A DNA stretch of 22,368 nt from an uncultured bacterium (GCA_965371515.1 CBDUYR010000046.1:1-22368), one strand, 5' to 3'. Counted from the stretch's first letter, positions 1-20,252 are shown. Numbers and translations: made by a program. Notes: generated by a model from the letters alone, not told the origin.

Positions 1-263
1 CTGCGGCGGGCGAGAATCCAGACGATCCACGCGGACTTGAGCGCTTCCTCGATAAAGGGAGCGACATATCTCGCATATGGGGTCAGCTCAAGCCCTGTCG
101 CAGGCTTGAGCTGTTGAGTAATAAAATAGGCTGCGACCGCCGCGACAGATCCGGCACTGAGGCTCGCAGCCACGTGACGGAAACGGACGAGCTTGAAGCT
201 GTCCATCGCCTTGAGGACGAGGAGGAACACGAGGACAGGAATGATTGCGATGAGGTAGTTCAA
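1..263 (-). CDS. prsW: PrsW-family glutamic-type intramembrane protease (5' part; runs off the window edge)
   Basis: Not in the ORF track. Manual translation from TTG at 263 (in-frame TGA just upstream at 290-288): MNYLIAIIPVLVFLLVLKAMDSFKLVRFRHVAASLSAGSVAAVAAYFITQQLKPATGLELTPYARYVAPFIEEALKSAWIVWILARR. Several hydrophobic helices plus the PrsW-type AP-x-x-EExxK motif. Starts 19 nt after the upstream gene's stop. Confidence 0.8.
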   Translation of the reverse strand, partial: MNYLIAIIPVLVFLLVLKAMDSFKLVRFRHVAASLSAGSVAAVAAYFITQQLKPATGLELTPYARYVAPFIEEALKSAWIVWILARR

Positions 264-282
264 CTTATAATATCTCTGCCTG

Positions 283-3200
283 TTACCTCAGTATCTTCAA
301 GGATAGCATCAACTCTTCCCTTGGGGCGTAGCCGTCCTCGAAGGCGAAGGCATAACCTGCCGAGAAGGTAGTCTGCAGGGAAGAGAAGAAGACGATCTTC
401 AGGTTGAGCTGCGAGCCGACGTTAGCAATCTCGACACCCTCATAGTCGGCGTCTACATTGGTCGCGATCGCCGAGCCGAAGAAGGCGAGGCTCGCCCAGT
501 TGGCGTAGAGCGACGGCCATCCGAGAGAGGAGAACCTCAGCGGCGGGAGCGTCCACTCGACCATTCCCTTGAGAAAGTTTGTGCCGCCGATCTCGTTGAG
601 CTCGACTCCGGGGAAGGTATAGAACTCTCTGTACCTGTCGACTCCCTGGTGGTCGACCCAGTTGTTCCCGAATCCCCCGAAGAAGAAGTATGAGTTCGAT
701 TCCTTCCTGTCGCCGAGGGAGAAGCCCCCCGACGTTCTGAGCCATATCGAGGAATGGTCCCACGGAAGAAGGAATCCATAATCAAGAGTGCTCCAGAATA
801 ATGGATAGAGCTCGCCATTGACCAGCGAGGAATATTCGTTGAGGGAGAATTTGATTCCCTTTTCCGCCTGTATCCCGCCTATCGTCCTCCGCACATGCCT
901 GTAATTCAGGGACCCTTCGAGGGTGTAGAAATCCTTCATCGTTGCCAGGATGTTCTGGTAATGGGGGAGGTATTCCAGGTTGCCGTAGGCGGCGGCCTTG
1001 ACGTTCAGTCCGAGTTTCTTCGGTCTGTCGACGATGAATCCGTAGTCATAGTTCAGGGCTAGCGAGTGCCCTTTCCTGCTGACCTTCGTCGGGCCAAAGA
1101 GGTCGTAGAAATCGGCACGGTTATAATAGCCGGTGGCGGCCCATCGGCCTCTGGAGTATTTGAACCTGAAATGACCCCGCTCGTTCTCCGGCAGGTTCGT
1201 GTTCGGCGTGTAGGAAACAGCCATGTCTAGGGCGTTTATACCGACTGGGTCCATCATGTTGAACCTCAGTCCGATGGTGCCGTAATCCTTGTATCCCTCG
1301 ACGATCGGGTAGAGCGACGTGACCCTGAGGTTCCGTGTCACCTTGTACTCGCCCTCGTACGTCTTCAGCGAGTCTATCTCGATCTCACGCGGCGAGCTCA
1401 GCATCCAGTCCTCCAGCTCGGGATGCTCTAAGATGACAGCCTGTCCGAGGTATTTTACAGCGTATATGTCTTCTATCGGGTTAACGGGGATCATGACCGG
1501 CTCGAATCCGCTGCCGGTGTACCTGAAGGTTATGAGCGAGTCGTCCGACACGGGCAGGGGCCGGAAGGCCCCGATCTCGAAGTTGCTCAGCGCTTCGATC
1601 TTCCATTCCTCGAAATCGAACCTGAAGATATTCGAGGTGCCGGTAGAGTAGGAGGTTCCGTAGAGATACCGCCCGTCGGCCGAGTGGACGAAGTTCGCCG
1701 CGTTGTTATCGGTGAACTCGTGAAGCAGTTCCCAGGTGCCGTCCCCGATCATCAGTCTCGCCGTTTCCATCCTGATCAGCCGCTGGTTGCCGCTTATGTC
1801 GGTCATGGTACCGGTGAGCCACTTCCCGTCGGGCGAGATGTCGATGTCGAACATGTCGTACCCGTACCTCAGCTTGAGCAGCTCGTACCCGTCCTCGTAC
1901 GGTGGAGGGAACATCACGATACTCGTGAATCCGTTGTCGTGCCTCATGCCCCAGATCGTCGAGTCTGCCCTGCTGTAGACGAGGTCGCCTGTCCGGTTAT
2001 CCTTGCAGAGTACCTTTGTCTTTCCCGTGGCGATGTCGACCGAGTTGAGGTCGCGAAAGCCCCTGCTGTTGTCTGTCGTGAAGAAGAGGGTCCCGCTCTC
2101 AGGATCATGAGCGAGGCCTGTGACGTAGTAGAGGGCCGGGGTCTCTATCTCGCAGATCTTCCTCATCTCTCCCGAGTCGATATTGATCGCCGCGATATGA
2201 GAGAACTCGCCGGGATAGTTCACAGCCGCGTAGAGCGTCCGGCTCTCCGCATCGAAGAACTCCCTCGAGACGGAGCCGAGCGCACGCTCGCAGAGCGGCC
2301 GGGCGGGTGTTACGGGATATTGACGTATCGAGTCGAGGTTTGTCTCCTGCCACTGTTTCTCGAATTCGATCCATTCGTTCCACTTCTCGTAGATCGAAGC
2401 GTCGAACACCTTGCGGAACTGGGTTGAGAAGTAGGCGCCGCTTCCCTCGTTACGGCGCACCCATTCGACCACCGAATCGGGGCCGTGCATCAGGGAGAGA
2501 TAGCTGAAGAAGCGCGTGCCGTAGAGGTACGACACCTGGCCGATCTGGAAATCCTTCGCCGTGCCCTCCGACTCCAGGCCAACAACGGTGTAGAACTCGA
2601 TGCTGTCGCGGACCATCGCCCTGAAGGTCATCTCGTCGTACCCGGTGAGCGACCGGCCGATCCCGCCCGCCATCCAGGTCTCCATGAATACGGCTATTCC
2701 CTCGTGGTACCACCTCGGTGCGTACAGGCGCGGCGTTGTGAGGTATGCGTAGAATATCGAGAGAGGGTCCTCGGCGACGGGGTGGACCTTGCCGAAGAAG
2801 AGCTTCCTGAACCGGGAATCCCACCCGGTCGCCTGGTCGGAGGCGGTAACATGGACGAGTTCGTGGTTCATCACCCAGTTCATCCGCTCGTTTGTCGGGC
2901 ACGTGTCGTAGACGTACTCGAAAGGTTCGATGCCGAGAGTGATCCAGTTGTTGGGGATCACTGTGGTTCCGGCATAACCGTAATCGTCGTCGTCGTTGAA
3001 GTAGACGGTCACCGGACCGCTCGGCGTGTAGTCGAAGAATTTCTGGTGATAGCGGAATGCGTTCTCGAAGCAGCGGGAAATGTGCTCTATGACGTACTCC
3101 TGCTCCTTGTAAAAGTAGAAGACCTTGAGGTCTTCCGTCTCGTACGTCCTGTATTTGAGCTGGTAGGGTTTTTCATCCTCGCTTTCGCTCGATGCCCGGC

Positions 3201-3285
3201 CCGGAACGAAACATATCGCCGCGGCGGCGATAAGGATAGGGATCGAGCGTGTGATGAATCCGGCTGTCGCTGTGAATCGATTCAT
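283..3285 (-). CDS. ~1000-aa exported multidomain protein: MA-clan (gluzincin-like) zinc peptidase + TolB/PD40-like beta-propeller + C-terminal Omp85/BamA-like beta-barrel
   Basis: Start moved from 3372 to ATG 3285 (AAGGGAAG RBS-like, followed by signal peptide MNRFTATAGFITRSIPILIAAAAICFVPGRASS). HELVH at 2851-2865 with downstream PRWYHEGIAVFME (third zinc ligand Glu, 2701-2703). Propeller blades DISPDGKWL, HSADGRYLY, HDPESGTLFF. C-terminal third has alternating aromatic beta-strands and BamA-like FFFGG...GGTNFLKGMVEWTLP. Confidence 0.8.
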   Translation of the reverse strand: MNRFTATAGFITRSIPILIAAAAICFVPGRASSESEDEKPYQLKYRTYETEDLKVFYFYKEQEYVIEHISRCFENAFRYHQKFFDYTPSGPVTVYFNDDDDYGYAGTTVIPNNWITLGIEPFEYVYDTCPTNERMNWVMNHELVHVTASDQATGWDSRFRKLFFGKVHPVAEDPLSIFYAYLTTPRLYAPRWYHEGIAVFMETWMAGGIGRSLTGYDEMTFRAMVRDSIEFYTVVGLESEGTAKDFQIGQVSYLYGTRFFSYLSLMHGPDSVVEWVRRNEGSGAYFSTQFRKVFDASIYEKWNEWIEFEKQWQETNLDSIRQYPVTPARPLCERALGSVSREFFDAESRTLYAAVNYPGEFSHIAAINIDSGEMRKICEIETPALYYVTGLAHDPESGTLFFTTDNSRGFRDLNSVDIATGKTKVLCKDNRTGDLVYSRADSTIWGMRHDNGFTSIVMFPPPYEDGYELLKLRYGYDMFDIDISPDGKWLTGTMTDISGNQRLIRMETARLMIGDGTWELLHEFTDNNAANFVHSADGRYLYGTSYSTGTSNIFRFDFEEWKIEALSNFEIGAFRPLPVSDDSLITFRYTGSGFEPVMIPVNPIEDIYAVKYLGQAVILEHPELEDWMLSSPREIEIDSLKTYEGEYKVTRNLRVTSLYPIVEGYKDYGTIGLRFNMMDPVGINALDMAVSYTPNTNLPENERGHFRFKYSRGRWAATGYYNRADFYDLFGPTKVSRKGHSLALNYDYGFIVDRPKKLGLNVKAAAYGNLEYLPHYQNILATMKDFYTLEGSLNYRHVRRTIGGIQAEKGIKFSLNEYSSLVNGELYPLFWSTLDYGFLLPWDHSSIWLRTSGGFSLGDRKESNSYFFFGGFGNNWVDHQGVDRYREFYTFPGVELNEIGGTNFLKGMVEWTLPPLRFSSLGWPSLYANWASLAFFGSAIATNVDADYEGVEIANVGSQLNLKIVFFSSLQTTFSAGYAFAFEDGYAPREELMLSLKILR

Positions 3286-3312: not shown

Positions 3313-3349
3313 GAAGGAGGCAGCCCGGTCAGTGCCGGGCTGCTCCTTC
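3313..3349 (-). terminator. Strong intergenic stem-loop between the repeat-protein gene and the peptidase/Omp85 gene (partial terminator or mRNA 3' stabiliser)
   Basis: GAAGGAGGCAGCCCGG-TCAGTG-CCGGGCTGCTCCTTC: 15-bp stem with one bulged base. No clear U-tract after it on the minus strand. Confidence 0.6.
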
Positions 3350-3393: not shown

Positions 3394-5349
3394 CTAGATC
3401 TCCCTGCGCATCGACGATCTCTCCATCATGGAGGCTCTGTTGAATATTGACGCCTTTTCCTGCAGCGAGGTGCGCCCCATTATCGAGGCCTTCTCCTGGA
3501 GGGAGGCCCTGTTGAATATCGATGCCTTTTCCTGGACCGAAGCGCGCCGCATGATGTTGGATTTCTCCTGGACCGAGAACCTGTCCATCAGGGACGCCTT
3601 CTCCTGGATCGAGAACTTGCCGATGATGGAGGCTTTCTCCTGCATCGGGAGCTTGTCGAAAGCTTCCATCGTTATCGAGGCCCTCTTTAGGATCGAAGTA
3701 CGGTCCTGCAGAGAGAGGCGCTGCATCAGTTCGGACCGCTCCTGGATCGAGGCGCGGTCGAATATCGAGGCCTTCTCCTGCATGCAGCAACGCTCGAACA
3801 TGTCGACCCGCTCCTGGATGTTTGCCTTGGCGAATATATTCGACTTCTCATGGATAGAAGACCTGTTGAAGATCATGGCCTTTTCCTGGATGTTGACCCT
3901 CTCCATCAGAGAGGACTTCTCCTGGATATTGGCCCGCTTCATCAGCGAGCTTTTTTCCTTAAGAGAGGCGCGCTCCATGATGTTGGACTTTTTCTGAAGC
4001 GAGAACCTGTCCATCAGGGAGGCCTTCTCCTGGATCGAGAACTTGCCGATGATGGAGGCTTTCTCCTGCATCGGGAGCTTGTCGAAGGCTTCCATCGTGA
4101 TCGAGGACTTCTTGAGGAGCGACCTGCGGTCCTGTACGGAGAAGCGCTGCATCAGCTCGACGCGCTCCTGGATAGTGGCTCGCTTGAATATCGAGGCCTT
4201 TTCCTGGATCGAACTGCGCTGCATGATATCGGAGCGCTCCTGGAGCGATGCCTTCTCGAAGAGGAAGGCCATGCCCATAAGGCTGGTCCTCTGCATGATC
4301 GCGGACTTCTCCTGTATCGTAGCACGCTGCATCAGGTCGGCCCTCTCCTGGAGCGATGCCTTCCGCATGATATTGGACTTCTCCTGGATCGAGAACCTGT
4401 CCATCAGGGAGGCCTTCTCCTGGATCGAGAACTTGCCGATGATGGAGGCTTTCTCCTGCATCGGGAGCTTGTCGAAGGCTTCCATCGTGAGCGAGTGCCT
4501 CTCGAGGATGGAAGTGCGCGCGTACGGTCCGAGCTCCTTGAAGACTTTCATCTTTCCCTGGATGGTGGCGCGCTTGAAGATCGCGGCCTTCTCCTGGAAA
4601 GTAGCCCTCTCGAGGATCGAGGCACGCTCGGCTATCGAGGCGCGGTTGAATATTGTCGCCCTCTGCTGTAGCGAGGACCGCTGCATGATGTCGAGTCTCT
4701 CCTGGATCGATGTGCGGTTGAAGATCGCCGCTTTCTGATGTATCGAGGCGCGCATCATGATATCGGCCTTCTCCTGGAGGGAAAGCCTCTCCATGATAGC
4801 GGCTTTTTCCTGGATAGTGGCTTTCTTCATCAGAGAGGCCTTCTCCTGGATGGAGAACTTCTCTATGATCGCGGCCTTCTCCTGCATCGGGAGCTTGTTG
4901 AACGCCTCCATTGTGAAGGATGTTCTCTTGAGGAGACCGGCCCCTTGCTGAAGCGCATAACGCTCGAACATCGAAATACGTTCCAGAGGGGTCGCGCGTT
5001 CGATCAGGGAAAAGCGCGCATGATCGATAGCAATAGAGGCGAATGCCGCTTTCTCCTGAATCGAAGACCTCTGCAGAAGGTTGGACTTCTCCTGGAGCGA
5101 AGTTCGCTCAAAGAGAGCCGCCATTTCCTCGGGAGAGATCGTGTTGTCCATCGTGTATTCCGACTCGTAATCCCCCTCGAAGTTCAGTACAACGTCCTTG
5201 TCGCTTATCTGCTGGTTACGATACTTGTCCACCGCTCCAATCGTTCCCTCAGCGCCGTCACGGCCTGTGGGAGGATGGAAGAAGGCGAAGTAGGCAACCA
5301 CTACGATTGCGATCAGGACAACCACCAGCAGAACCTTGTTCTTCCCCAT
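3394..5349 (-). CDS. 651-aa single-pass membrane-anchored tandem-repeat protein (12-aa helical repeats), function unknown
   Basis: Strong RBS AAGGAGGT upstream of ATG 5349. Basic N-terminus and hydrophobic segment aa 6-24. Residues 82-651 are repeats with consensus [RK]ASIQEKASI[MF]x. Confidence 0.9.
   Translation of the reverse strand: MGKNKVLLVVVLIAIVVVAYFAFFHPPTGRDGAEGTIGAVDKYRNQQISDKDVVLNFEGDYESEYTMDNTISPEEMAALFERTSLQEKSNLLQRSSIQEKAAFASIAIDHARFSLIERATPLERISMFERYALQQGAGLLKRTSFTMEAFNKLPMQEKAAIIEKFSIQEKASLMKKATIQEKAAIMERLSLQEKADIMMRASIHQKAAIFNRTSIQERLDIMQRSSLQQRATIFNRASIAERASILERATFQEKAAIFKRATIQGKMKVFKELGPYARTSILERHSLTMEAFDKLPMQEKASIIGKFSIQEKASLMDRFSIQEKSNIMRKASLQERADLMQRATIQEKSAIMQRTSLMGMAFLFEKASLQERSDIMQRSSIQEKASIFKRATIQERVELMQRFSVQDRRSLLKKSSITMEAFDKLPMQEKASIIGKFSIQEKASLMDRFSLQKKSNIMERASLKEKSSLMKRANIQEKSSLMERVNIQEKAMIFNRSSIHEKSNIFAKANIQERVDMFERCCMQEKASIFDRASIQERSELMQRLSLQDRTSILKRASITMEAFDKLPMQEKASIIGKFSIQEKASLMDRFSVQEKSNIMRRASVQEKASIFNRASLQEKASIMGRTSLQEKASIFNRASMMERSSMRREI
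3397..5142 (-). repeat. Intragenic 36-bp (12-codon) tandem repeat array, organised into higher-order blocks
   Basis: From R82 (5106): 44 twelve-residue units plus four 10-residue TMEAF[DN] units. One further degenerate unit (TISPEEMAALFE) precedes them. TTCTCCTG recurs at about 36-nt periodicity on the plus strand. Confidence 0.95.
3574..4490. repeat. Three near-identical 101-bp direct repeats (3574-3674, 4000-4100, 4390-4490); a divergent fourth copy at about 4816-4916
   Basis: 4000-4100 and 4390-4490 are identical by eye, and 3574-3674 differs at 3 positions. Spacings 426, 390 and 426 bp match protein super-repeats of 142, 130 and 142 aa. The copies encode TMEAFDKLPMQEKASIIGKFSIQEKASLMDRFS. 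Confidence 0.92.
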
Positions 5350-5406
5350 CTGATGACCTCCTTTTTGGGAATGGGTTTCTACCGCTCGCTAATTTACTGT
5401 TCACCC

Positions 5407-5435
5407 TAAATACAGCCGACTTCCCTCAATGTTGG
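5407..5435 (-). promoter_or_regulatory. Putative ECF-sigma promoter for the repeat-protein gene (CCAAC-N16-TGTATTTA)
   Basis: Minus strand reads CCAAC attgagggaagtcggc TGTATTTA, 57 nt upstream of ATG 5349. The same boxes and spacing occur in front of the sigma gene. Resembles SigW-type AAC-N16-CGTA geometry. Confidence 0.65.
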
Positions 5436-5454: not shown

Positions 5455-6192
5455 TTATCCGCCGGCGACGAATCTCATGGCTGTGACCGTTTTGCCGTCG
5501 GTGAAGATACGCAGCACGACAGCCGCGGTCTCCGCCGATCTGAACCTGATGACGTATTTAGCCTTGCCTTGATGTACGAGCAGGAGGCTCTTCTCGTCGA
5601 CTTCCATCTGGTAGGCCGCTCCCTCGTTCGATCTGATCGACTCGAAAGAGACGTCGCCCTCGAACTCGAGGAGGACGCTGGTCTCCACATCGGAAGCCAG
5701 GTCTATCGTGACAGTCATGGAGCTGCTTTCTACTACGGGCAGCACGCTTCCCTTGACGCCGAAGGCATCGAATGCTTCGGTAGAGCTTTTCTCACTTTCA
5801 GCGGCTCCGATCGTCGCTCCGTAACCGTTTTCCTCCGGTGTCCGGTCAGTAAACGGACTTATCGCAGCGAATATGATGAATCCCGCCGCGACACCGGCGG
5901 CGAAGACGGGAGCGAATGACCGCCAGAAGGTGCGTCCGCCCGCTGCCTGTACCGAGATCTCCTCCCGGGAGCGCCCGTATATCGAATCGAATATCCTCGC
6001 CCTGAGCTCCGGGGGAGGCTCGAGCTCTCCCGCGCCGTCTATGGCTCCGACCGTTTCTTTCAGTTCCTCATAGTACATTTGAGCCTCGGGATCGGACTTT
6101 ATATAAGCGGCGAGCTTTTCCGCGTTCCCGCCGGATATGATCCCGTCGATCTCCTCGTTCATCAGCCTTATGTAGAATTCGTCTATGCTCAT
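5455..6192 (-). CDS. Membrane-spanning anti-sigma factor (ZAS-like N-terminal helices lacking zinc ligands, one TM, extracytoplasmic beta-rich domain)
   Basis: Begins 3 nt after the ECF sigma stop. N-terminus LMNEEIDG...EKLAAYIKSDPEAQMYYEEL...PPPELRARIF follows the anti-sigma domain pattern. TM FAPVFAAGVAAGFIIFAAI. Confidence 0.8.
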   Translation of the reverse strand: MSIDEFYIRLMNEEIDGIISGGNAEKLAAYIKSDPEAQMYYEELKETVGAIDGAGELEPPPELRARIFDSIYGRSREEISVQAAGGRTFWRSFAPVFAAGVAAGFIIFAAISPFTDRTPEENGYGATIGAAESEKSSTEAFDAFGVKGSVLPVVESSSMTVTIDLASDVETSVLLEFEGDVSFESIRSNEGAAYQMEVDEKSLLLVHQGKAKYVIRFRSAETAAVVLRIFTDGKTVTAMRFVAGG

Positions 6193-6195
6193 GAT

Positions 6196-6726
6196 TTACC
6201 CTGCCCCGGTGAGAATTTCCTTCATCCGCTGTCTTGCCGAGTAGAGCCTGGACTTCACCGTCTTCTCGGGAATCCCCAGCACGTCGCCCATTTGACGGTA
6301 AGAGAGGTCGACGAAATGTCTGAGGATGATGGCCACCCTCTGATCCTCGCCGAGTTTCTTCAGCGCGGACTGCACGAGCCCGTTCGACTCCTTGCGTATG
6401 ATCTGCTGCTCCGGCCCCGGAGCGCGGGAGGGGAGGTCGAACTCGATGTGCACGATCCTGCGCTGTCTTTTCACCTGGTTCAGGGATTCGTTGACGCCCA
6501 TCCTGTAAAGCCAGCTGAAGAACTTCCTCGATGGATCGAAGGTCTCCAGCCTTTCGAAGGCCTTTACAAATACTGTCTGTGTGACATCCATGGCATCCTC
6601 GTAGTCGCCGCAGATCCTGAACGCGAGGTTGAAGATCCGTCGTTCGTACTTCTCCACTAGCCTTCCGAACGCTTCCCTGTCTCCATTGAGCGTTTCGATA
6701 ACCAGCGATGAATCCGTTGTCGACAT
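6196..6726 (-). CDS. ECF-family RNA polymerase sigma factor (SigW/RpoE-like)
   Basis: Region 2: GDREAFGRLVEKY...DAMDVTQTVFVKAF...FFSWLYRMGVNESLN. Region 4: LSYRQMGDVLGIPEKTVKSRLYSARQRM. Start ATG 6726 (MSTTDSS) preferred over 6792; start uncertain. Confidence 0.93.
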   Translation of the reverse strand: MSTTDSSLVIETLNGDREAFGRLVEKYERRIFNLAFRICGDYEDAMDVTQTVFVKAFERLETFDPSRKFFSWLYRMGVNESLNQVKRQRRIVHIEFDLPSRAPGPEQQIIRKESNGLVQSALKKLGEDQRVAIILRHFVDLSYRQMGDVLGIPEKTVKSRLYSARQRMKEILTGAG

Positions 6727-6754
6727 AAATACAGGCCAACCGCGAAAAAGTTGG
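6726..6754 (-). promoter_or_regulatory. Putative autoregulatory ECF promoter motif (CCAAC-N16-TGTATTTA) abutting the sigma start codon
   Basis: Minus strand reads CCAAC tttttcgcggttggcc TGTATTTA(TG), matching the copy at 5407-5435. Overlaps a GCCAAC-N9-GTTGGC inverted repeat. Confidence 0.55.
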
Positions 6755-6915: not shown

Positions 6916-7203
6916 TTACTTTATGTCAAATATAAAGTCGAAGCCGGCAATCGTGAAGATATCGCGGATGTGAGGGGTCATGTTAGCGATCTCGAGTTTG
7001 TAACCGTTGTCGTTGAGCCGTTTCTGGGTGGCGAGAAGGAGGCCGAGTCCGGCGCTGGAGATGTAGCGAAGTTCAGCGAAGTCTATGGTCGTCGTAGATC
7101 CCACTTTCTCGAGGATCTCCCTGGTCATGTTGACCTGGTTCGAATCGAGCCTTCCGTTGAGCCTGATCGTCCCGTCGCCCGCTACCGTAATGTCGAACAT
7201 CAT
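6916..7203 (-). CDS. STAS-domain anti-sigma-factor antagonist (RsbV/SpoIIAA-like)
   Basis: 95 aa. LNGRLD, IDFAELRYISSAGLGLLL (phospho-Ser motif), IRDIFTIAGF. ATGA overlap with the upstream kinase gene. Confidence 0.93.
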   Translation of the reverse strand: MMFDITVAGDGTIRLNGRLDSNQVNMTREILEKVGSTTTIDFAELRYISSAGLGLLLATQKRLNDNGYKLEIANMTPHIRDIFTIAGFDFIFDIK

Positions 7204-7604
7204 TCGTCCTCCAGGCGTTTTCTAGCCGTGACAACAAGAGTACCCTCATCGTAATCATAATCGAGCCCGTCCGCCATCTTTTTCACGAGATGGATGCCGA
7301 GCCCGCCTGGCTCGCGTTCCATCAGTGGTGCCTTCGTGTCCACATCCCCGAGAGAGTCACCGTCGAACGGCTCCGTGTCCCGGTCGGTCAGTCGGATGGT
7401 CAGGAGATCGTCTTCCAGTTCGATCTCTATCTCGATTACGTCGGTCCCCGGCGCATGCCGCACGAGGTTAGTGAAGAGTTCTTCCAGCGTCAGGTCGAGA
7501 AAGTACGATTGAGAGTCGTCGAAACCGTTATCGTTCTCGAACTCGCCGGCGAACGTGAATATCCCGTCGAGTGATTCGAGATCTCTCCTGAAGTTTCTCT
7601 GCAT
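7200..7604 (-). CDS. Anti-sigma regulatory factor / Ser kinase (RsbW/SpoIIAB-like HATPase)
   Basis: Start moved to ATG 7604 (GGAAGGA RBS; MQRNFRRDLESLD, 134 aa). N-box LEELFTNLVRHA, DRDTEPFD, G2 box PGGLGIHLVKKMAD. Confidence 0.9.
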   Translation of the reverse strand: MQRNFRRDLESLDGIFTFAGEFENDNGFDDSQSYFLDLTLEELFTNLVRHAPGTDVIEIEIELEDDLLTIRLTDRDTEPFDGDSLGDVDTKAPLMEREPGGLGIHLVKKMADGLDYDYDEGTLVVTARKRLEDE

Positions 7605-7736: not shown

Positions 7737-7802
7737 GTAACTATTCTGGAAATATATCCGCCGCTGAGTCGAGCGGGGGAACCTGGACGTGGAGGTGACA
7801 CG

Positions 7803-8708
7803 ATGAAGATCGGCATGATCGGGCTGGGGAAGATGGGCGGCAACATGGCTGAGCGGCTGATGAAAGGCGGACACGAGATCGCGGGGTACGCCCGTCACGA
7901 GGAGACGGTCCGCGCCTTCGAGGAGAAGGGTGGAAGGGGGGCCGGCTCGATCGCGGAGCTGGCGGGGATGCTTGAAGCCCCGAGGATCGTCTGGCTGATG
8001 GTGCCGGCCGGAGGCCCGGTCGACTCGGTGATAGAAGAGCTGATGCCTCATCTCGATGAGGGCGATATCCTCATCGACGGGGGGAACTCACGGTATACGG
8101 ATACGAAAAGGCGAGCCGCAGCTCTGCTGGAAAAAGGGCTGAACATGGTTGATGTCGGCACGAGCGGAGGTGTGTGGGGACTGGCGGAAGGATACAGCAT
8201 GATGGTGGGCGGGGAGAAAGCGGCGGTCGATACACTCCGGCCTGTCCTCGAGACTCTCGCACCCGCTCCCGATATGGGATGGGGACATGTCGGCCCGTCC
8301 GGAGCCGGTCACTTCGTCAAGATGGTGCACAACGGGATCGAGTACGGGATGATGCAGGCGTTCGCCGAAGGATTCGCGATAATGAAGGCGAAGGAAGAGT
8401 TCGACATAGATCTCCACGCTGTATCGGAGATTTGGCGGTACGGAAGCGTAGTCCGCTCCTGGCTCCTCGACCTGATCGCGGATGCCCTGGACGGCGACGA
8501 GGATCTCGCCGGTATAGCGCCGTTCGTTTCCGATTCGGGGGAAGGCAGATGGACGGCGATCGAGGCGATCGATCTCGGTGTTCCCGCGCCGGTGATCTCA
8601 CTGGCCCTGTCAGAGAGGTTCCGCTCGCAGGATGACAATTCTTACGCCGACCGGCTGCTCGCCGCAATGAGGAACCAGTTCGGCGGACACGAGATGAGGT
8701 CGAAATGA
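7803..8708 (+). CDS. gnd: 6-phosphogluconate dehydrogenase, decarboxylating (short-chain, 301 aa)
   Basis: Start ATG 7803 after GGAGGT. IGMIGLGKMG Rossmann motif, LMVPAG, IDGGNS, DVGTSGG, GAGHFVKMVHNGIEYG, DSGEGRW, AMRNQFGGH. Confidence 0.96.
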   Translation: MKIGMIGLGKMGGNMAERLMKGGHEIAGYARHEETVRAFEEKGGRGAGSIAELAGMLEAPRIVWLMVPAGGPVDSVIEELMPHLDEGDILIDGGNSRYTDTKRRAAALLEKGLNMVDVGTSGGVWGLAEGYSMMVGGEKAAVDTLRPVLETLAPAPDMGWGHVGPSGAGHFVKMVHNGIEYGMMQAFAEGFAIMKAKEEFDIDLHAVSEIWRYGSVVRSWLLDLIADALDGDEDLAGIAPFVSDSGEGRWTAIEAIDLGVPAPVISLALSERFRSQDDNSYADRLLAAMRNQFGGHEMRSK

Positions 8709-10150
8709 ACATACCTTCGCACATCTTCACGATATTCGGCGCCAGCGGCGACCTGACAAAGAGAAAGATCCTGCCCGCGCTGTTCCATCTTTTCGCAGAA
8801 GAGAGGATAGGCCCCGACTGCATAGTCGTCGGCACCGGCAGAAAACCGATGGACGACGAGACGTTCAGGGCCCTGACGCTAGAGGCCCTTTCTGAATCTG
8901 GTCTCGGGGGGGGAGAGGGCGCGGCGAAATGGTGCACCGGATGTGTCTTCTACCATTGTCTCGGGGACGGATCGGCCGGGAATTACACACTTCTCGGGGA
9001 GAGACTCTCAGAGCTGGAGAAGGAACACGGCATCCCCGGGAACAGGGCCTTCTATCTCGCGCTGCCGCCCGACGCCTTCCCACCTGTCATAGAGAATATC
9101 GGCGAGGCCGGACTTGCCGACTCGGAAGGGTGGTCGAGGCTCGTCATAGAGAAGCCGTTCGGCCGTGACCTGGATTCAGCGGAAAAGCTCAATGAGCATA
9201 TACATCGCTGGTTCGATGAGGACCAGATCTACCGGATAGACCACTATCTCGGCAAGGAGACGGTTCAGAACCTCCTCGTCTTCCGCTTCGCAAACGCGAT
9301 TTTCGAGTCGATATGGAACCGCGATCGTGTCGACCACATACAGATCACGGTGGCCGAGTCCCTCGGCGTTGAGCACCGGACGAAATACTACGATACGGCC
9401 GGAGCGGTAAGGGACATGGTACAGAACCACATCGCCCAGCTGCTGACCCTGATCACGATGGAGGTGCCCGGCGCGTTCGAAGCCCGCGCGATAATGCAGG
9501 AGAAGATCAAGGTCTTGCGGAGTATCACGCCGCTTCAACCGAAGGACATCGTTCTCGGGCAGTACGACGCTGGAGATGAGATGCCAGGGTACCGCGATGA
9601 AGAAGGGACCGGCGAGGACTCCGCGACACCGACTTTCGCCGCCGTCCGGCTTCATGTCGATACGTGGAGATGGAAGGGGACCCCGATTTATATCAGGACA
9701 GGCAAGAGGATGCCGGTAAAGACGACGCAGATCTCGGTTGTATTCGAAAATCCGCCGGTCTGTTTCTTCCAGACGATGGAAGGATGCACGCTTCGTCCCA
9801 ATGTCCTTAACATCACTATCCAGCCCGACGAGAGTTTCACGCTCTCTTTCGACGTCAAGAAACCGGGCGAGCCGTTTACTCTTGAGCCGCAGGATCTTCA
9901 CTTCAGCTATGCCGATACATTCGGCAGGCTGCCCGACGCCTACGAGACCCTTCTTCTCGATATCATGACGGGCGATCAGACACTCTTCGTCCATGCCGAC
10001 GAAGTGGAGGCCTCCTGGAAACTCTTCGAGCCGGCGCTTGACCGTGGACTGCCGCTGGCGCGTTACGCGGCCGGGACATGGGGGCCGGATGAAGCGGCAG
10101 AACTGCTCCTGCAGGACGGCCGCGCCTGGTCGGTCAGGCGGGGCGGGTAG
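8705..10150 (+). CDS. zwf: Glucose-6-phosphate 1-dehydrogenase
   Basis: IFGASGDLTKRK, IEKPFGRD, YRIDHYLGKETVQN, RDMVQNH, DAYETLL. ATGA overlap with gnd. Confidence 0.98.
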   Translation: MNIPSHIFTIFGASGDLTKRKILPALFHLFAEERIGPDCIVVGTGRKPMDDETFRALTLEALSESGLGGGEGAAKWCTGCVFYHCLGDGSAGNYTLLGERLSELEKEHGIPGNRAFYLALPPDAFPPVIENIGEAGLADSEGWSRLVIEKPFGRDLDSAEKLNEHIHRWFDEDQIYRIDHYLGKETVQNLLVFRFANAIFESIWNRDRVDHIQITVAESLGVEHRTKYYDTAGAVRDMVQNHIAQLLTLITMEVPGAFEARAIMQEKIKVLRSITPLQPKDIVLGQYDAGDEMPGYRDEEGTGEDSATPTFAAVRLHVDTWRWKGTPIYIRTGKRMPVKTTQISVVFENPPVCFFQTMEGCTLRPNVLNITIQPDESFTLSFDVKKPGEPFTLEPQDLHFSYADTFGRLPDAYETLLLDIMTGDQTLFVHADEVEASWKLFEPALDRGLPLARYAAGTWGPDEAAELLLQDGRAWSVRRGG

Positions 10151-10152
10151 AG

Positions 10153-10896
10153 ATGCAGCGCGCCGTTCGCGTATTCGATGACCTCGAATCGATGAGCGTT
10201 GCCGCGGCCGCGGCGGTTGTGGAACTGGCCGCAGGATCGCCCGGCCCATTCTCGATCGCCCTCGCAGGAGGAGGCACTCCGCGCCGCCTTTACGAGATAC
10301 TCGCTGAAGATTCTGCCGGCATCGACTGGGAGAAGGTTCACCTCTTCTGGGGTGACGAGAGATTCGTCTCTACCGGCGATCCTGAAAGCAATTTCGGAAA
10401 TATCCGACCGGTTCTTCTCGACAGGATCGATATCCCCGATGGAAACATTCACGCCATCCCCGTCGATGCGCCGACAGCGGTCGATGCGGCGGAGATATAC
10501 GAGAAGGAACTAAAGGACTTTTTCGGGATTCAGGAAGATGGATTCCCCGAGTTCGACCTGATCCTGCTCGGCCTCGGCGATGACGGACACACCGCTTCGA
10601 TATTCCCCGGAGATTCCGTAATCGAAGAGAGGCACAAGTGGGTTTCGTCCGTGACTGGACCGGCGGGTATCGAACCGGCGGAGCGAGTCACACTCACCCT
10701 TCCGGTCCTGAATGCAGCAGGAAATATCTTCCTCCTCGTCTCGGGGGAATCGAAGGCCGATGTCCTTCACGACATACTCTTCGCCGGCCGGCTGGCTGAA
10801 GCAGAATATCCCGCAGCGATGATCTCTCCCGACGGCCCGCTCGTATGGTTCATCGACCGGGCGGCATATGGCGGCGACCCCGATTCCTGCCGGTGA
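10153..10896 (+). CDS. pgl: 6-phosphogluconolactonase
   Basis: IALAGGGTP, LFWGDERFV, FDLILLGLGDDGHTASIFP, RVTLTLP. Follows zwf by 2 nt. Confidence 0.96.
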   Translation: MQRAVRVFDDLESMSVAAAAAVVELAAGSPGPFSIALAGGGTPRRLYEILAEDSAGIDWEKVHLFWGDERFVSTGDPESNFGNIRPVLLDRIDIPDGNIHAIPVDAPTAVDAAEIYEKELKDFFGIQEDGFPEFDLILLGLGDDGHTASIFPGDSVIEERHKWVSSVTGPAGIEPAERVTLTLPVLNAAGNIFLLVSGESKADVLHDILFAGRLAEAEYPAAMISPDGPLVWFIDRAAYGGDPDSCR

Positions 10897-10900
10897 ATAC

Positions 10901-10929
10901 TTGATTATATCCCCGACAACGGTTAATCT
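10901..10929 (+). promoter_or_regulatory. Putative sigma70-type promoter for the nitroreductase/ATP-grasp pair
   Basis: TTGATT-N17-TAATCT immediately after the pgl stop, 37 nt before ATG 10967. Confidence 0.4.
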
Positions 10930-10966
10930 CCTTTTCATGTTTTCCAAGATGCGAAAGGAGACCCCG

Positions 10967-11701
10967 ATGAGATACCTGACGATTGTACTGCTTGCGGCCT
11001 GTATCCTGATGCCCTCGGGTGCGTGGAGCGGCAAGTATACCCTCGAGCACAACGCTCTCGCGACAATAGAACTGCCGAAGCCTGTCCTGGACAGCGAGTT
11101 CTCGATAGAGAAGGTCCTCCAGGAGCGAAGATCGGTCAGGAGCTATACAGATGAGCCCGTTACGCTGGAAGAGGTCTCCCAGCTTCTCTGGTCCGCCTAC
11201 GGGATCACGTACACGAGGGAGGGTCTGCCCGATTTCATACGCGGGGGATTCAAGACAGCGCCGTCAGCCGGGGCCCGATATCCGCTCGAGATATATCTCG
11301 TCGCCGGTAACGTCAGTGGCCTTCTGCCCGGGATCTACTGGTACGTTCCCGAAGGCCACGTGATCCACAGGCTCGTCGACGGCGATGTCCGGATCGACCT
11401 CCAGGCCGCGTGCCTCAGTCAGAAGTTCGCAGGCGAGGCGCCGATCTCGATCGTCTGGTCTGCCGTCTACGAGAGATGCACGGAGAAATACGGGGAGCGC
11501 GGCACAGACAGGTACGTCTGTATGGACCTCGGTCACTCGGCTCAGAACGTTTACCTCCAGTGCGGATCGCTCGGGCTCGGAACCTGCGCCATCGGCGCCT
11601 TCACAGACGATTCACTGAAGAATCTGATCGGCATGACCGAAGAAGAAGTGCCGCTGTACGTAATGCCTGTGGGAAGGCTTCCGAGGGAACATAAAAAATG
11701 A
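10967..11701 (+). CDS. SagB/ThcOx-family FMN-dependent dehydrogenase (nitroreductase fold) with N-terminal signal peptide
   Basis: Start ATG 10967 after AAAGGAG. RRSVRSY, VSQLLWSAYG, TAPSAGARYPLEIY, DLGHSAQNVYL, LGLGTCAIGAF. N-terminus MRYLTIVLLAACILMPSGAWS. Confidence 0.9.
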   Translation: MRYLTIVLLAACILMPSGAWSGKYTLEHNALATIELPKPVLDSEFSIEKVLQERRSVRSYTDEPVTLEEVSQLLWSAYGITYTREGLPDFIRGGFKTAPSAGARYPLEIYLVAGNVSGLLPGIYWYVPEGHVIHRLVDGDVRIDLQAACLSQKFAGEAPISIVWSAVYERCTEKYGERGTDRYVCMDLGHSAQNVYLQCGSLGLGTCAIGAFTDDSLKNLIGMTEEEVPLYVMPVGRLPREHKK

Positions 11702-12867
11702 TAATCCTCGACAGGCCGTACGTGTCCGACTTCCTCGCCTCGACCCTTCAGCGCCTCCGGACGCCTGTGCTGCGTAACGGCGTCTCCGAGGCTATTGCCG
11801 AGGAGTACGATCTCAACCTTATCGACGAGGTGGAATTCGCCGCCAGGGCCAACAAGGAAAAGTATCCACTGATATATACCAGCTCTGAGGATGCGATAGG
11901 GTGGATCGCGAAGAACCTCGAACCGTCCGGACTGCCCGCCAGGATCGACCGGTTGAAAAACAAGATCCATTTCCGCAGCATGATCGAAGAGGATCATCCC
12001 GGTTTTTTCTATGCCGGTATCGATCTCGAGGCGCTGCGGCACCTTGATCCATCCGAACTTCCCAAGCCGTTTATCGTAAAACCCGCCGTGGGATTCTTCA
12101 GCGTAGCGGTCCGCAAGGTAGAATCTGATGCCGAGTGGCCCGCCGCACTGAAGTCCATAGAGGAGGATCTCGAAAGTTTCGGGGGGATGTATCCCGGACA
12201 AGTATTTGATCCGGGTAAGTTTATTATCGAGGAAGGCATAAAGGGTGAGGAGTTCGCGATCGACGTCTATTACGACGAGATCGGCCGGCCCGTGATCCTC
12301 AATGTCCTTCATCATCTCTTCTCTTCGGGGACCGATGTCAGCGATACTACATATGTTACTTCGAAAAGGATCGTCGAATACGGGCTACAGATGTTCACAG
12401 GACCGCTCGCCCGTATCGGGAAGCTGGCCGACCTGAAGAATTTCCCGATCCATATCGAGATGAGAGTAGACGGTCGTGACATCGTTCCTATAGAGGCCAA
12501 TCCGATGAGATTTGCGGGCTTCGGCGGGACGGATTTCGGTTGGTATGCCTGGGGAATAAATACTCACGAATATTTTCTCGAGCGAAAGATACCCGACTGG
12601 AAGGCGATATTTGACGGGAAAGAAGATCGCGTCTACTCGATGTATGTAGCTTTCATACCCGAGGATGTTTCCGTCTCAAGGGTAAAGGATATAGATTACG
12701 ATGGCTTCGTGGCCAACTTCACGAAGGTGCTGGAACTCCGTAAGACAGACTGGCGCAATTATCGCGTCTTCTCCTTCGTCTTTACGGAAACAGGTCCGGA
12801 GACCGCATCCGAGATCGAGCGGAACCTCCAGCTCGACCTCTCTCCATACGTACTTATGAAGGACTGA
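11698..12867 (+). CDS. ATP-grasp domain protein (putative amino-acid/peptide ligase)
   Basis: PFIVKPAVGFFSVAVRKV, IIEEGIKGEEFAID, HIEMRV, PIEANPMRFAG. ATGA overlap with the upstream gene. Confidence 0.88.
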   Translation: MIILDRPYVSDFLASTLQRLRTPVLRNGVSEAIAEEYDLNLIDEVEFAARANKEKYPLIYTSSEDAIGWIAKNLEPSGLPARIDRLKNKIHFRSMIEEDHPGFFYAGIDLEALRHLDPSELPKPFIVKPAVGFFSVAVRKVESDAEWPAALKSIEEDLESFGGMYPGQVFDPGKFIIEEGIKGEEFAIDVYYDEIGRPVILNVLHHLFSSGTDVSDTTYVTSKRIVEYGLQMFTGPLARIGKLADLKNFPIHIEMRVDGRDIVPIEANPMRFAGFGGTDFGWYAWGINTHEYFLERKIPDWKAIFDGKEDRVYSMYVAFIPEDVSVSRVKDIDYDGFVANFTKVLELRKTDWRNYRVFSFVFTETGPETASEIERNLQLDLSPYVLMKD

Positions 12868-12889
12868 GGCTGTCTTCGCCGGTCAGTCC
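12861..12889. terminator. Possible bidirectional hairpin spanning two convergent stop codons
   Basis: GGACTGA-GGC-tgtcttc-GCC-gg-TCAGTCC. No U-tract. Confidence 0.3.
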
Positions 12890-15800
12890 GAAACGACAGG
12901 GAATATCTTTCTGCCGAGTATCTTCAGATCTTCCAGTATCAGGTAGAGGCTCGGGATTATAATCAGGGTTATCCCCGTTGCGAACAGCACACCCCATCCG
13001 AGTCCGGCAGCCATCGGGATGAGGAACCTTGCCTGAAGAGATCTCTCGAGAAGCATCGGCGTCAGACCTATGAACGTCGTTAATGAGGTGAGTATGATCG
13101 CCCTGAACCTCAGCTCGCCGGCGGTGCTGATCGATTCTATCGCCGTCCTGCCGCCCCCGTGAATCCTGTTCGTCGCCTCGATCAGTACGAGCGAGTCGTT
13201 CACGACCACTCCCGACAGGCCGACTATTCCGAAGAGGCTCATCATATTCAGATCGTAGCCCATCACGATGTGGCCCAGGACTGCTCCAACCATTCCAAAG
13301 GGGATCGCCGTCATTACTATGAGCGGTTGTGTGAACGATTTGAAAGGTATGGCGAGGAGCGCATAGATCAGGAAAAGCGCTATGACGAACGACTTGAGGA
13401 TCGACGACATGAATTCCTGGTCTTCGCGTCCCTCTCCTTCGACGGCGAACCGGACGTCGGGATGTGATTCACGCATAGCGGGAAGTATCGTTGTCTCCAA
13501 TGCGCGGTTTACCTCTGTATTGTTGGCCTGTCCCTCCTCGATATCGGCCGATACGGCGATGACCCGCTTTCTGTCAGCCCTCGAGATGGTCGCATAGCCC
13601 TGGACGGTGTTTACCTCGGCGACCTGCCTGAACGGTACCTCGGTGCCGTCCGGCATGCGGATCCGCATACCGCTGACGTTTCCGATCGATCTGCGTTCAT
13701 CGTCCGGGTATCGCACGAGGACTTTGACCTCGTCCTCGCCTATCTGCATGCGCAGGGCCTCGGAGCCGTAGAAGGCGGCCCTTACCTGGCGGGCAAGATC
13801 GCTCAGCGTCAGACCGAGACTTCTCGCTTCATGTTTGAGTTTGAGCTGCATCTCCTGCTTGCCGGGCATGTAGTCGTCGGCGACCTCGATCAGTCCGGGG
13901 TACGCATTCAGTTCGGTCTTGAGGGCTTCGACAGCTTCGAAGAGTTTGACGTTGTCGTCTGACGAGAGGTGTACCTCGATCGGTGCGTTCACCCTTCCTG
14001 TCTGCCCCTTGAACGAGACAGCTTCGGCATCGGGGATTCGCCCGACCTTCTTGCGCCATTGGCCGACGAGGTATCGAGACTTGATGTTTCTCTTTTCTCC
14101 CTCGAGAAGCTGAATGTGTACCTGGGCCAGGTGCCCGCCTATCTCAAAAGTAGCGAAAGGTCCATGTCCGCCCATATGGACCCCGATCAGTGTGAAATAT
14201 TCCTCCATCACGGACGGTGCGTCATCGGGCCGCCGGCTGTCCGCCTCCTTCATCGTCTCGAGAGCGGCCTGTTCTATACGGGCAAGCACCTCCTCGGTAC
14301 GGCTGACCGGCGTACGCGGAGGCATCACTACGGAGCATGAGAGATAGTCCGCATCGAGGCGCGGCATCAATGTAAGCTTTATCCGCCCGCTGGCGATGAT
14401 GCTTATCGTGAAGATCAGAAGGGCCACACCGACTGCCACAGTGACATATCTCCACTTAAGGCAGAGCGCGAGAAAACGCCTGTAAGGTCCCCTTACAAAG
14501 TCTTTTAACCATCTGTCAGCCAGCTTGGTCCGCGTCTCTCCCGGATTATGGTTGAATGTCTTGAACCGGCTTCTGGCAAGATGAGCAGGCAGTATCAGGA
14601 GCGCCTCGATCAGCGATCCGGCCAGGACGGCGATGACCACGATCGGGATATTGCGCATGAAGTTTCCGCGGGTTCCCGGTAACATCAGGAGGGGCCAGAA
14701 AGCCGCTATCGTCGTCAGTACGGCGAAGATGACCGGCTTGCTCACCTGCGAGGCTCCCTGGACGGCCGCCTCAAATGGCGGGACCCCTTTCTCGCGCTTC
14801 CTGTATATGTTCTCGCCGATGATGATCGCGTCATCGACGACGATTCCCAAGATCAGTATAAATCCGAAGAGTGAGATCATGTTGATCGAGATACCGAAAA
14901 GGGGAAGCAGCCACAGGCCCGTGGCGAAAGATATCGGTATACCCATCGTTACCCAGAAGGCGAGTTTCACGTTGAGGAAGAGCGACAGGAGAATGATGAC
15001 GAGGACGAGTCCGAGCGCCATATTCTTGATGAGGAGACTGATCCTGCTTTTGAGGAGGGTCGATCTGTCCTGAAAAAATACCGCGTCCATTCCCTCGGGC
15101 AGATCGTCGCGGATGTCTCCGACGTACCTCTTCACTGTGGATGCCACCTCGAGTGCGCTCTGGTCGGCGACGCGGTAGACCTCGATGAAAGCAGCCGGTT
15201 TACCTCTCGTGGAGACCTTCAGATCGTTGTCTTCGAATCCGTCGGTGAGTGTGGCAATCTGTCCGAGCGTGACTTTCGACCCGTCGGGGCGCGCTATTAC
15301 AGCGATGTCGGCATACTCGTCGGCAGTATATCTGCGGCCCTTTGTCCTTATGAGGACCGTCCCTTCCTTCGACCTGACCGAACCGGCGGGAAGGTCCAGG
15401 CTGGATTTCTGCACGATGGCCGCGACCTGGTCGAGCGTCAGCCCGTATCGCCTGAGGTTTGTCTCCGAGATATCGATATGGATCTCGGCGCGCCGAACGC
15501 CGAAGATCTCGACGAGGGTTATACCGTGCATATTGACCAGATCGCTCTTCATCTTCTCGGCGAGATGCTTGATCGTCGATTCCGGCGCGTCGCCGTACAG
15601 GGCAATATTTATCACCTGTATCTTGCGCACGATCTGCCTGACGATAGGTTTCTCAGCCTCGTTGGGGAAGGTCCTGATGCGGTCTACCTCGCTCTTGACA
15701 TCGTTGGTCAGATCGACGAGGCTCCATCCGCTGAGGAGCTCGATCGTGACGGTTCCGAATCCCTCGCGAGCCGATGCGGTGATCCTCTTAATCCCGGCAA

Positions 15801-18679: not shown

Positions 18680-18719
18680 ATATCTTCCTGCAATCAAGAT
18701 TGATGATGGCCGAATCAGC

Positions 18720-18728
18720 ATTTTATCA
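18720..18728 (-). promoter_or_regulatory. Putative extended -10 promoter (TGATAAAAT) for the efflux operon
   Basis: TGnTAAAAT in an AT-rich intergenic stretch, 40 nt upstream of TTG 18679. Confidence 0.4.
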
Positions 18729-18787
18729 AATATCTCCGAAATTATCTAACGTCATGCTATCGAATAATAATATTTCGGGCGAAAGCG

Positions 18788-18812
18788 CTGCCTTGACCGG
18801 GGTCAAGCGCAG
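18788..18812. promoter_or_regulatory. Palindrome CTTGACC-GG-GGTCAAG (TTGAC-N4-GTCAA): operator-like site or terminator hairpin
   Basis: Perfect 7-bp arms at 18792-18798 and 18801-18807, extendable by CTGC/GCAG with one bulge. Confidence 0.45.
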
Positions 18813-18823
18813 TCGAGTTCCTC

Positions 18824-19270: not shown

Positions 19271-19303
19271 TGTCAATTCCTTCCCTGCTCGTCTGCCGGA
19301 CCG

Positions 19304-20199: not shown

Positions 20200-20252
20200 G
20201 CTCTCTCTCGAAACAGGCAGGCTCATTACGTATGCGGCGCTGAGGCTCAAAG

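Follow-up and report, generated by a model that had tools for sequence, protein, structure and literature searches.

A seven-gene cassette that pairs hypervariable repeat proteins with a predicted zincin-propeller-barrel protein and a PrsW-family protease in uncultured bacteria

What does a membrane-anchored protein made largely of short repeats do for its bacterium? We addressed this question for a gene, here called REP, in 22,368 nt of DNA from an uncultured bacterium (GCA_965371515.1 CBDUYR010000046.1:1-22368; this whole stretch is the window below). An initial annotation, made from the sequence, had described a protein of hierarchical 12-residue repeats and offered several roles for it. 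We found that REP belongs to a cassette that also encodes a sigma factor of the extracytoplasmic function (ECF) type, a predicted outer-membrane barrel protein (OM) and a PrsW-family intramembrane protease, and we give a probability of about one half to the reading that the sigma factor induces REP as the cargo of an export route akin to two-partner secretion but without POTRA, with proteolytic release coming before export. Feature coordinates are collected in Table 1.

The repeat hierarchy in the initial annotation held exactly. From aa 82 onward REP parses without gaps into 5, 11, 10, 11 and 7 twelve-mers split by four ten-mers, each of the latter followed by the proline-bearing unit K-L-P-M-Q-E-K-A. 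Where about 48 units had been claimed we counted 48, the last ending at aa 649 with two residues left over, and one small correction concerns aa 106-141 and 272-283, where units are degenerate. The lack of tryptophan and the membrane anchor, a hydrophobic stretch at aa 6-24, were likewise confirmed. Self-identity reaches 0.344 at lag 12 (best lag in 1000 shuffles, 0.155), and the twelve-mer itself consists of two 6-mers (lag 6 identity, 0.241). Higher-order lags appear at 130, 142 and 272 (identity 0.50 at 142 and 0.53 at 272), and the DNA of the gene has periods of 36 and 426 nt. No REP paralogue was found in its own genome. Same-genus orthologues are 74-86% identical, and because the ectodomain dN/dS against three of them is 0.19-0.22, the comparison indicates that REP is a real conserved gene under purifying selection. 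Six relatives retain the length (651-654 aa) and the hinge pattern, down to 52% identity, while remoter 12-mer members have different block lengths.

A homologue search with the whole protein gave 2 matches among 7998 candidates, one of them a chimeric-looking acyl-CoA ligase fusion, so the N-terminal motif was needed to find relatives. Searching with aa 1-60 only, a check proposed with the initial annotation, proved decisive and exposed both the REP family and the cassette, of which that annotation had said nothing. A HMMER scan of 1.84 billion representatives yielded 261 matches, 150 of them listed; among 152 proteins collected, 76 carry one motif after a transmembrane (TM) helix. This motif has 23 residues, G-T-I-G-x3-K-Y-R-x2-Q-I-x3-D-V-x-L, and no Pfam or NCBIfam family describes it. 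Only aa 1-57 of REP are conserved across the family, no conserved C-terminus was found in it, and no enzyme or toxin domain was found behind the motif in the members examined. In 60 ectodomains, length runs from 182 to 1096 aa (median 372, a roughly six-fold spread), 44 are free of tryptophan, and the repeat period is 12 in 18, 9 in 15, 8 in three and 7, 10 or 11 in one each, with 21 irregular. Members with nine-residue units look like STI1/DP repeats. Repeat class was mapped on a tree of 51 OM proteins, with 17 of 68 rows excluded for want of a classified partner; it switches there at least 15 times (minimum 6; mean of shuffles, 27), indicating that it clusters by lineage yet has been repeatedly replaced. 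Together, these comparisons indicate that the family is defined by the anchor and the 23-residue motif, not by the repeats. The longest ectodomain, 1096 aa at L068, has period 8. One database protein (P0001) joins an acetoacetate-CoA ligase to REP-family 12-mers on a 2.9-kb contig and is likely a chimeric assembly.

The cassette lies on the minus strand in the order RsbW, STAS, ECF sigma, anti-sigma, REP, OM and PrsW, and this order is kept in relatives. Loci for comparison were chosen by OM alone, as the best 80 of at least 586 confirmed. The REP motif occurs in 66 of these 80 loci and in 65 of 65 where at least 1 kb upstream is available, and PrsW occurs in 64 of the 68 with room. Among 53 loci with room for the other parts, an ECF sigma is present in 48, an anti-sigma in 45, STAS in 50 and RsbW in 47; kin are not independent, and these counts are descriptive rather than statistical tests. 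Record labels of OM loci include Krumholzibacteriota, Eisenbacteria, Latescibacterota, Acidobacteriota, Bacteroidota/Ignavibacteria, KSB1, Calditrichota, Marinimicrobia, Zixibacteria and Gemmatimonadota, about ten phyla altogether. Because the closest named relative of OM (88%, among the best 80 of at least 586) is labelled Candidatus Krumholzibacteriota, the host likely belongs to that phylum. Across 151 genomes of the host phylum, 49 have the REP motif and 47 have OM, and all 47 OM genomes have the motif; in one of the two motif-only genomes the contig ends inside REP, and in the other there is an N-run at that place. No description of the cassette or the motif was found in the open literature (subscription journals fall outside this scope, and the sigma factor's ECF group may bear on novelty), and the conserved seven-gene cassette is apparently undescribed.

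Both sigma and REP genes carry a predicted ECF-type promoter. CAAC-N17/18-GTA stands upstream of REP in 45 of 53 non-fused loci, compared to 451 of 10400 random windows (4.3%), and the same promoter precedes the sigma gene in 47 of 48 loci. When the host genome was scanned with a matrix built from REP sites, the window site included, the sigma (27.4) and REP (25.4) promoters ranked first and the next site scored 20.0; the regulon of the sigma factor seems limited to the cassette. Published work describes autoregulation with 16-18-bp spacers as usual for ECF factors (PMC7776599). Behind the REP stop codon, 54 of 58 loci have a hairpin with z<-2, versus 6 of 40 controls behind OM; another 8 loci, broken or atypical, were excluded. 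Because REP has its own promoter and this hairpin, it is likely the main product of the small sigma regulon, made in excess. One sequencing run, probably of DNA and present as contigs, covers mostly the REP gene of relatives; it does not rank genes and carries no weight here. In 33 of 47 loci, exactly 3 nt separate the end of the sigma promoter from the ATG. In the usual geometry of ECF promoters a G stands at -12. The mRNA would then either be leaderless, from a promoter of unusual geometry, or, by the -12 rule, begin past the sigma start codon; in the second case only anti-sigma and the downstream genes would be made, a built-in negative feedback.

OM is a protein of ~1000 aa with a predicted architecture of signal peptide, a gluzincin-like domain (HELVH, W-Y-H-E-G), a TolB-like propeller and a 16-stranded Omp85-like barrel. 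Its AlphaFold2 (AF2) model, made with 68 sequences (predicted local distance difference test, pLDDT, 92; predicted template modelling score, pTM, 0.90), predicts a helical zincin domain, the propeller, a short linker and 16 barrel strands, of which the 11th and 12th are joined by a long loop. No POTRA domain appears in the model, and there is no POTRA Pfam match. HExxH is present in 80 of 80 OM proteins and a downstream Glu motif, R-W-[YF]-x-E-G, in 78 of 80; OM thus carries at sequence level the HExxH and downstream Glu ligand of gluzincins (clan MA) and would be a putative peptidase. Peptidase_MA_2 matched 16 of 33 members and Omp85_2 matched 29 of 44 (best E 7.5e-08). A profile search of the PDB with the zincin alignment gave 3 chance matches, structure searches with the whole model returned mostly propellers, and ESM Atlas returned hypothetical and PD40/Omp85 clusters. 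Because the host genome has 11 other Omp85 matches, we consider OM an accessory barrel. Its nearest described relatives are the WD40-Omp85 group, which also has a TolB-like propeller ahead of an Omp85 barrel, whereas the Metallo-Omp85 group uses PF00149 and OM has an MA-clan HExxH domain before the propeller; the accessible part of that account gives no partner protein or cassette (PMC4104836).

The motif of REP is predicted to bind this protein. A complex model of OM aa 72-1029 with REP aa 25-61 scored 0.81, compared to 0.02 for the best of 3 controls, and the model runs agreed in at least 93% of contacts, with a partner pLDDT of at least 66. In a calibration that applies roughly to this pair, 116 of 157 solved pairs attained the docking mark, compared to 2 of 215 mismatched ones. 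Modelled contacts start exactly at G35, and G35-F57 lies between the zincin, the propeller and the pre-barrel linker, with the metal ligands and catalytic residues of OM not among the predicted contacts. The models therefore predict that the motif docks on the periplasmic zincin/propeller part of OM. The motif starts ~10-11 residues past the anchor. Given the width of the periplasm, a motif so near the inner membrane would hardly extend to an outer-membrane protein. Because G35 lies so close to the anchor, docking likely requires release of REP from the membrane.

A candidate for this release is encoded in the same cassette. The G-[TSA]-[ILMV] beginning of the motif recurs 4-24 residues past the TM segment in 38 of 45 stand-alone anti-sigma factors versus 33 of 215 control windows, and Asp is common at -3, as in REP. 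At seven loci (L045, L058, L067, L069, L078, L093 and L101) an anti-sigma domain is fused to REP, and no separate anti-sigma was found there; P0009, P0012, P0042, P0081, P0093, P0097, P0105, P0115, P0142 and P0177 are also fusions of this kind. A Shine-Dalgarno sequence precedes an in-frame internal ATG at 7 of 7 fusion loci (a raw count with no control), and the fused genes likely yield two products from one gene. At L045 the promoter too lies inside the fused frame. The PrsW motif P-x-x-E-E-x-x-K is intact in 64 of 65 proteins, and PF13367 matches the orthologue at L016 with 67.8 bits (cut-off 23.5); the NCBIfam PrsW equivalog threshold was missed (32.5 vs 225). PrsW is the site-1 protease of RsiW (PMC8767453), and for RsiP this step is performed by signal peptidase (PMC8844934). 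Like the SigW-RsiW-PrsW-RasP system (PMC8767453, PMC8844934), the cassette and its genome combine an ECF sigma, an adjacent anti-sigma with a single pass, a PrsW whose E-E-x-x-K is intact, candidate site-2 proteases of the M50 family and an autoregulatory bipartite promoter (seen as a motif), all features of PrsW-type regulated intramembrane proteolysis. Unlike that system, it occurs in diderm hosts, its 340-aa PrsW has a C-terminal extension tied to STAS, and it has a second putative substrate, REP, that shares the juxtamembrane motif. In RsiW the cut falls 40 aa from the C-terminus (PMC8767453, PMC8844934), whereas the candidate site here lies next to the membrane.

The REP gene, its repeats and motif, the cassette, the promoter motif, the hairpin and the fusions are established from sequence; beyond them, we infer cleavage of REP, the protease, export and feedback. 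Sigma-induced, high-copy REP would likely enter the inner membrane through its anchor and be cleaved immediately outside it at the G-T-I motif, with PrsW as the probable protease. The freed residues 35-57 would then dock on the periplasmic zincin/propeller part of OM. In turn, OM would hand over the repeat rod, predicted to be helical, to the cell surface, where the variable repeats may form a lineage-specific surface filament or coat. Such a filament or coat had been one of the earlier suggestions and is compatible with the export reading. Because one juxtamembrane motif is common to REP and the anti-sigma, a single protease may serve both, maturing the cargo and freeing the sigma factor that transcribes REP. 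A constant tag, an exchangeable repeat body, a dedicated Omp85-type partner and excess expression make up the pattern of a secreted or displayed substrate (compare PMC5422565).

Several observations weigh against export or against parts of it. The barrel, whose role in translocation is putative, lacks POTRA, the Omp85_2 match of the window's own OM falls below the cut-off, and a PDB profile search with the barrel alignment gave 0 matches, none to any solved Omp85. Conservation of the predicted interface residues does not exceed that of the remaining periplasmic part of OM (0.70 vs 0.67; 2276 of 10000 random sets were as high), and the intact zincin beside the docking site could equally degrade the cargo. 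The window's own anti-sigma reads G-A-T-I-G, with A instead of G at the first motif position, and the candidate cleavage site, [AVTL]-x-G, also fits the signal peptidase I rule (PMC8844934). On site-1 cleavage of the anti-sigma by PrsW the shared motif bears indirectly. PrsW is missing in 4 of 68 OM loci with room. Its cassette subfamily occurs in 73 of the 151 phylum genomes, about 25 of which lack REP and OM; PrsW loci outside the cassette have STAS within 150 nt upstream in 16 of 17 cases and REP or OM in none. Because of this adjacency, PrsW is not dedicated to REP and has an independent role tied to STAS, and the arrangement suggests that STAS regulates the C-terminal extension of PrsW. 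In the ~25 genomes without REP or OM (L111-L128), a 340-aa PrsW stands directly behind STAS, several times after an Rrf2 regulator, like a mid-cassette deletion. A further point against is an orphan 699-aa paralogue (L024:9079-11178) with anchor and 12-mer repeats, a degenerate motif, no promoter and no cassette; it sits behind GAF-PP2C and ion-channel-like genes in a genome that also has a full cassette.

Some of these points return in the explanations that compete with export. One, which we regard as rather unlikely, is an envelope-protease signalling switch, where REP would remain periplasmic as sensor, bait or co-regulator and the barrel would be only an anchor; released REP would dock on OM and be degraded by the zincin, and the load of REP on PrsW would set anti-sigma cleavage. 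The seven anti-sigma/REP fusions, the frequency of RsbW and STAS (47 and 50 of 53 loci), two intact proteases (OM zincin and PrsW), a sigma regulon seemingly confined to the cassette, the persistence of PrsW with STAS alone and the role of PrsW on RsiW (PMC8767453) are all consistent with a switch. However, a pure sensor needs neither its own promoter and hairpin nor 180-1100 residues of freely exchanged repeats, the sigma factor would have no output beyond its own circuit, and the catalytic residues lie outside the predicted REP-OM contacts. An intact zincin (80 of 80) and the high-expression features of REP would also suit a polyprotein, likewise among the earlier suggestions, the docked ectodomain being fed to the zincin, chopped at basic residues into related peptides (hexapeptides here) and released through the barrel as signals or effectors. 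K or R does recur every 6 residues in the window's REP, and in 13 of 14 further proteins the commonest K/R gap is as long as the unit, but composition (14% K+R) predicts one K/R per 7-10 residues, and the spacing does not discriminate. Units retain helix-cap and core patterns, the ten-mer hinges keep their places at 52% identity although peptides would not need them, and 21 of 60 ectodomains are irregular, which together make the polyprotein improbable.

A fixed periplasmic ruler had also been put forward for REP, and in its present form, an uncut, periplasm-spanning scaffold between the inner membrane and the Omp85-like protein, we find it very unlikely. An N-terminal anchor and a long rod beside an Omp85 gene do recall TamB/TamA (PMC11014939), and length and hinge pattern are fixed at 651-654 aa in six relatives; across the family, however, length varies six-fold (182-1096 aa), there is no conserved C-terminus, and REP is predicted to bind OM through its membrane-proximal end, close to the inner membrane, while TamB binds TamA by its C-terminus (PMC11014939).

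How the repeats fold bears on what would be exported. The initial annotation had likened them to the MgtE N-terminal superhelix, and this received moderate support. Pfam MgtE_N (PF03448) matches REP with 67.4 bits (cut-off 25.9) and LED_rpt falls short of its cut-off; a single-sequence AF2 model has one 9-10-residue helix per unit, and in a VIA structure search with this model MgtE N-domains ranked first (Z 7.7, root-mean-square deviation 4.8, 119 aligned; weak for repeats). In 298 units from 18 proteins, position 3 is S/T in 84%, position 6 is E in 75% and position 4 is Pro in 12%, and S/T-x-x-E follows the rule for helix caps. On the other side, the model is of low confidence (mean pLDDT 60.5, pTM 0.34), and the hydrophobic periodicity of the units peaks at 6 and 2 rather than the helical 3.6, which also counts against export of a helical rod. 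Foldseek with the model found generic eukaryotic solenoids only (template modelling score at most 0.22), and ESM Atlas had no usable match to REP. The same periodicity would suit a hexapeptide beta-solenoid of the LbH type, a rival for the structure only, as would a Pfam LbH_EIF2B score of 55.3 bits against a cut-off of 54, without any single stretch passing, and LpxD-type NCBIfam matches. The NCBIfam matches are all far under cut-off, though; lags 12 and 24 are stronger than 6 and 18, whereas LbH proteins have uniform hexapeptides with an aliphatic inward residue and 18-residue coils, Pro takes up 12% of a would-be inward position, and the AF2 model is helical. We give the beta-solenoid only a slim chance, and the models make a helical solenoid likely for REP. 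With the superhelix of the MgtE N-domain and FliG (PF03448), REP shares predicted 12-residue helix-turn units, the Pfam match and the best structural matches; it differs in its 48 units and in being extracytoplasmic. It also lacks what makes an MgtE magnesium transporter, a CBS pair and a channel domain of five helices, for REP matches MgtE_N only and has a single TM segment. Database 'MgtE' names on REP members are repeat-driven misannotations, a set for which our finding accounts.

The proposed export resembles known systems without belonging to them. As in two-partner secretion (type Vb, TpsA/TpsB; PMC5422565), a long repeat-rich protein has a conserved N-terminal tag and an adjacent, dedicated 16-stranded Omp85-type barrel (for OM in the AF2 model, with the Omp85_2 matches described above), whose periplasmic part, in the case of OM, is predicted to bind the tag. 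REP/OM differs by the zincin and propeller, the 23-residue tag, the predicted alpha-helical passenger, the membrane-anchored precursor and its own ECF circuit. The two POTRA domains that precede a type Vb barrel are lacking, and in place of a ~250-aa beta-helical two-partner secretion (TPS) domain only aa 1-57 are conserved, with no TPS family match. The TAM (TamA/TamB) likewise pairs a long inner-membrane-anchored protein with an Omp85 protein, but TamB is beta-structured and binds by its C-terminus, whereas REP is predicted to be helical, is hypervariable and would bind near its N-terminus (PMC11014939); REP is no beta-taco partner of the TAM kind. PrsW has been proposed to free variable C-terminal cargo in polymorphic toxin export (PMC3482391), where it is fused to the cargo, mainly in Gram-positives; no toxin or enzyme domain was detected in REP members. 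Cell-surface signalling of the FecIRA type is defined by a TonB-dependent receptor of 22 strands, which the predicted 16-stranded OM barrel does not match. The cassette would work like two-partner secretion coupled to PrsW-type proteolysis, yet stands outside both type Vb and TAM.

Table 1. Features of the cassette and of REP in the window
Feature	Position	Strand	Basis or remark
REP repeat protein gene, 651 aa	3394..5349	-	ORF (open reading frame) call; repeat parse; dN/dS
Shine-Dalgarno of REP, AGGAGG	5357-5362	-	
N-terminal transmembrane anchor of REP, aa 6-24	5278..5334	-	hydropathy 3.28 over 19 aa; conserved in family
Family-defining motif of REP, aa 35-57, G-T-I-G...K-Y-R-x-x-Q-I...D-V-x-L; predicted OM docking	5179..5247	-	
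Repeat region, aa 82-649, 48 units (44 twelve-mers + 4 ten-mers); each unit predicted to form one helix	3403..5106	-	
Ten-mer interruption 1, aa 142-151	4897..4926	-	
Ten-mer interruption 2, aa 284-293	4471..4500	-	
Ten-mer interruption 3, aa 414-423	4081..4110	-	
Ten-mer interruption 4, aa 556-565	3655..3684	-	
Predicted ECF-type promoter of REP, CCAAC-N17-GTA	5411..5435	-	second-best site in genome
Second promoter copy, ends 3 nt before sigma ATG	6730..6754	-	best site in genome
Strong RNA hairpin between REP and OM genes; predicted stabiliser or partial terminator	3313..3349	-	z -5.44
RsbW-like kinase / anti-sigma	7200..7604	-	start inferred from orthologue length
STAS anti-anti-sigma protein	6916..7203	-	
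ECF sigma factor	6196..6726	-	likely ATG 6726; ORF caller 6792
Single-pass anti-sigma factor	5455..6192	-	G-A-T-I-G-A after TM at 5803-5820, variant of shared motif
OM protein gene	283..3285	-	likely ATG 3285; ORF caller GTG 3372
PrsW-family intramembrane protease gene, 5' part	1..263	-	contig ends; remainder on contig C8

Some loci depart from the common arrangement. At L081:12886-13653 REP has been relocated behind PrsW along with its promoter, and the anti-sigma abuts OM. Four reduced cassettes (L055, L056, L068 and L075) have no sigma or anti-sigma at the locus, and three of them (L055, L056 and L068) retain the promoter despite loss of the sigma gene, which implies a sigma factor acting from elsewhere. 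L020 and L021 (G006) are two near-identical copies, one with many frameshifts, likely assembly errors or a duplicate contig. Elsewhere in the window, 12883-20882 (minus strand) encodes a second ECF sigma (19612-20250), a small anti-sigma, Spy/CpxP-like proteins and a resistance-nodulation-division (RND) efflux set (OEP, MFP, AcrB), and no copy of the REP promoter was found in this region. Outside the cassette, 7800-12867 (plus strand) carries gnd, zwf, pgl, a nitroreductase and an ATP-grasp gene, which are neighbours at the genus level only.

An uncharacterised Omp85 branch, which combines peptidase and propeller, lacks POTRA and is widespread among uncultured diderm phyla, thereby gains a partner and a job open to testing. 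The 23-residue tag is short and portable, with binding testable by peptide. More tentatively than export itself, we propose that the cassette may be an undescribed Omp85-superfamily secretion system of about ten phyla of uncultured sediment and soil bacteria, with a PrsW-exposed 23-residue tag, a zincin-propeller-barrel exporter and hypervariable helical filaments, whose flux would be reported to its own sigma factor via a common cleavage motif or a dual-start protein. If export is true, alpha-helical surface proteins would have a route not described before, and the seven genes would make a compact tool for display. The motif common to cargo and anti-sigma would be a defined recognition site of the PrsW family, and maturation of a secreted protein and activation of a sigma factor would be one reaction.

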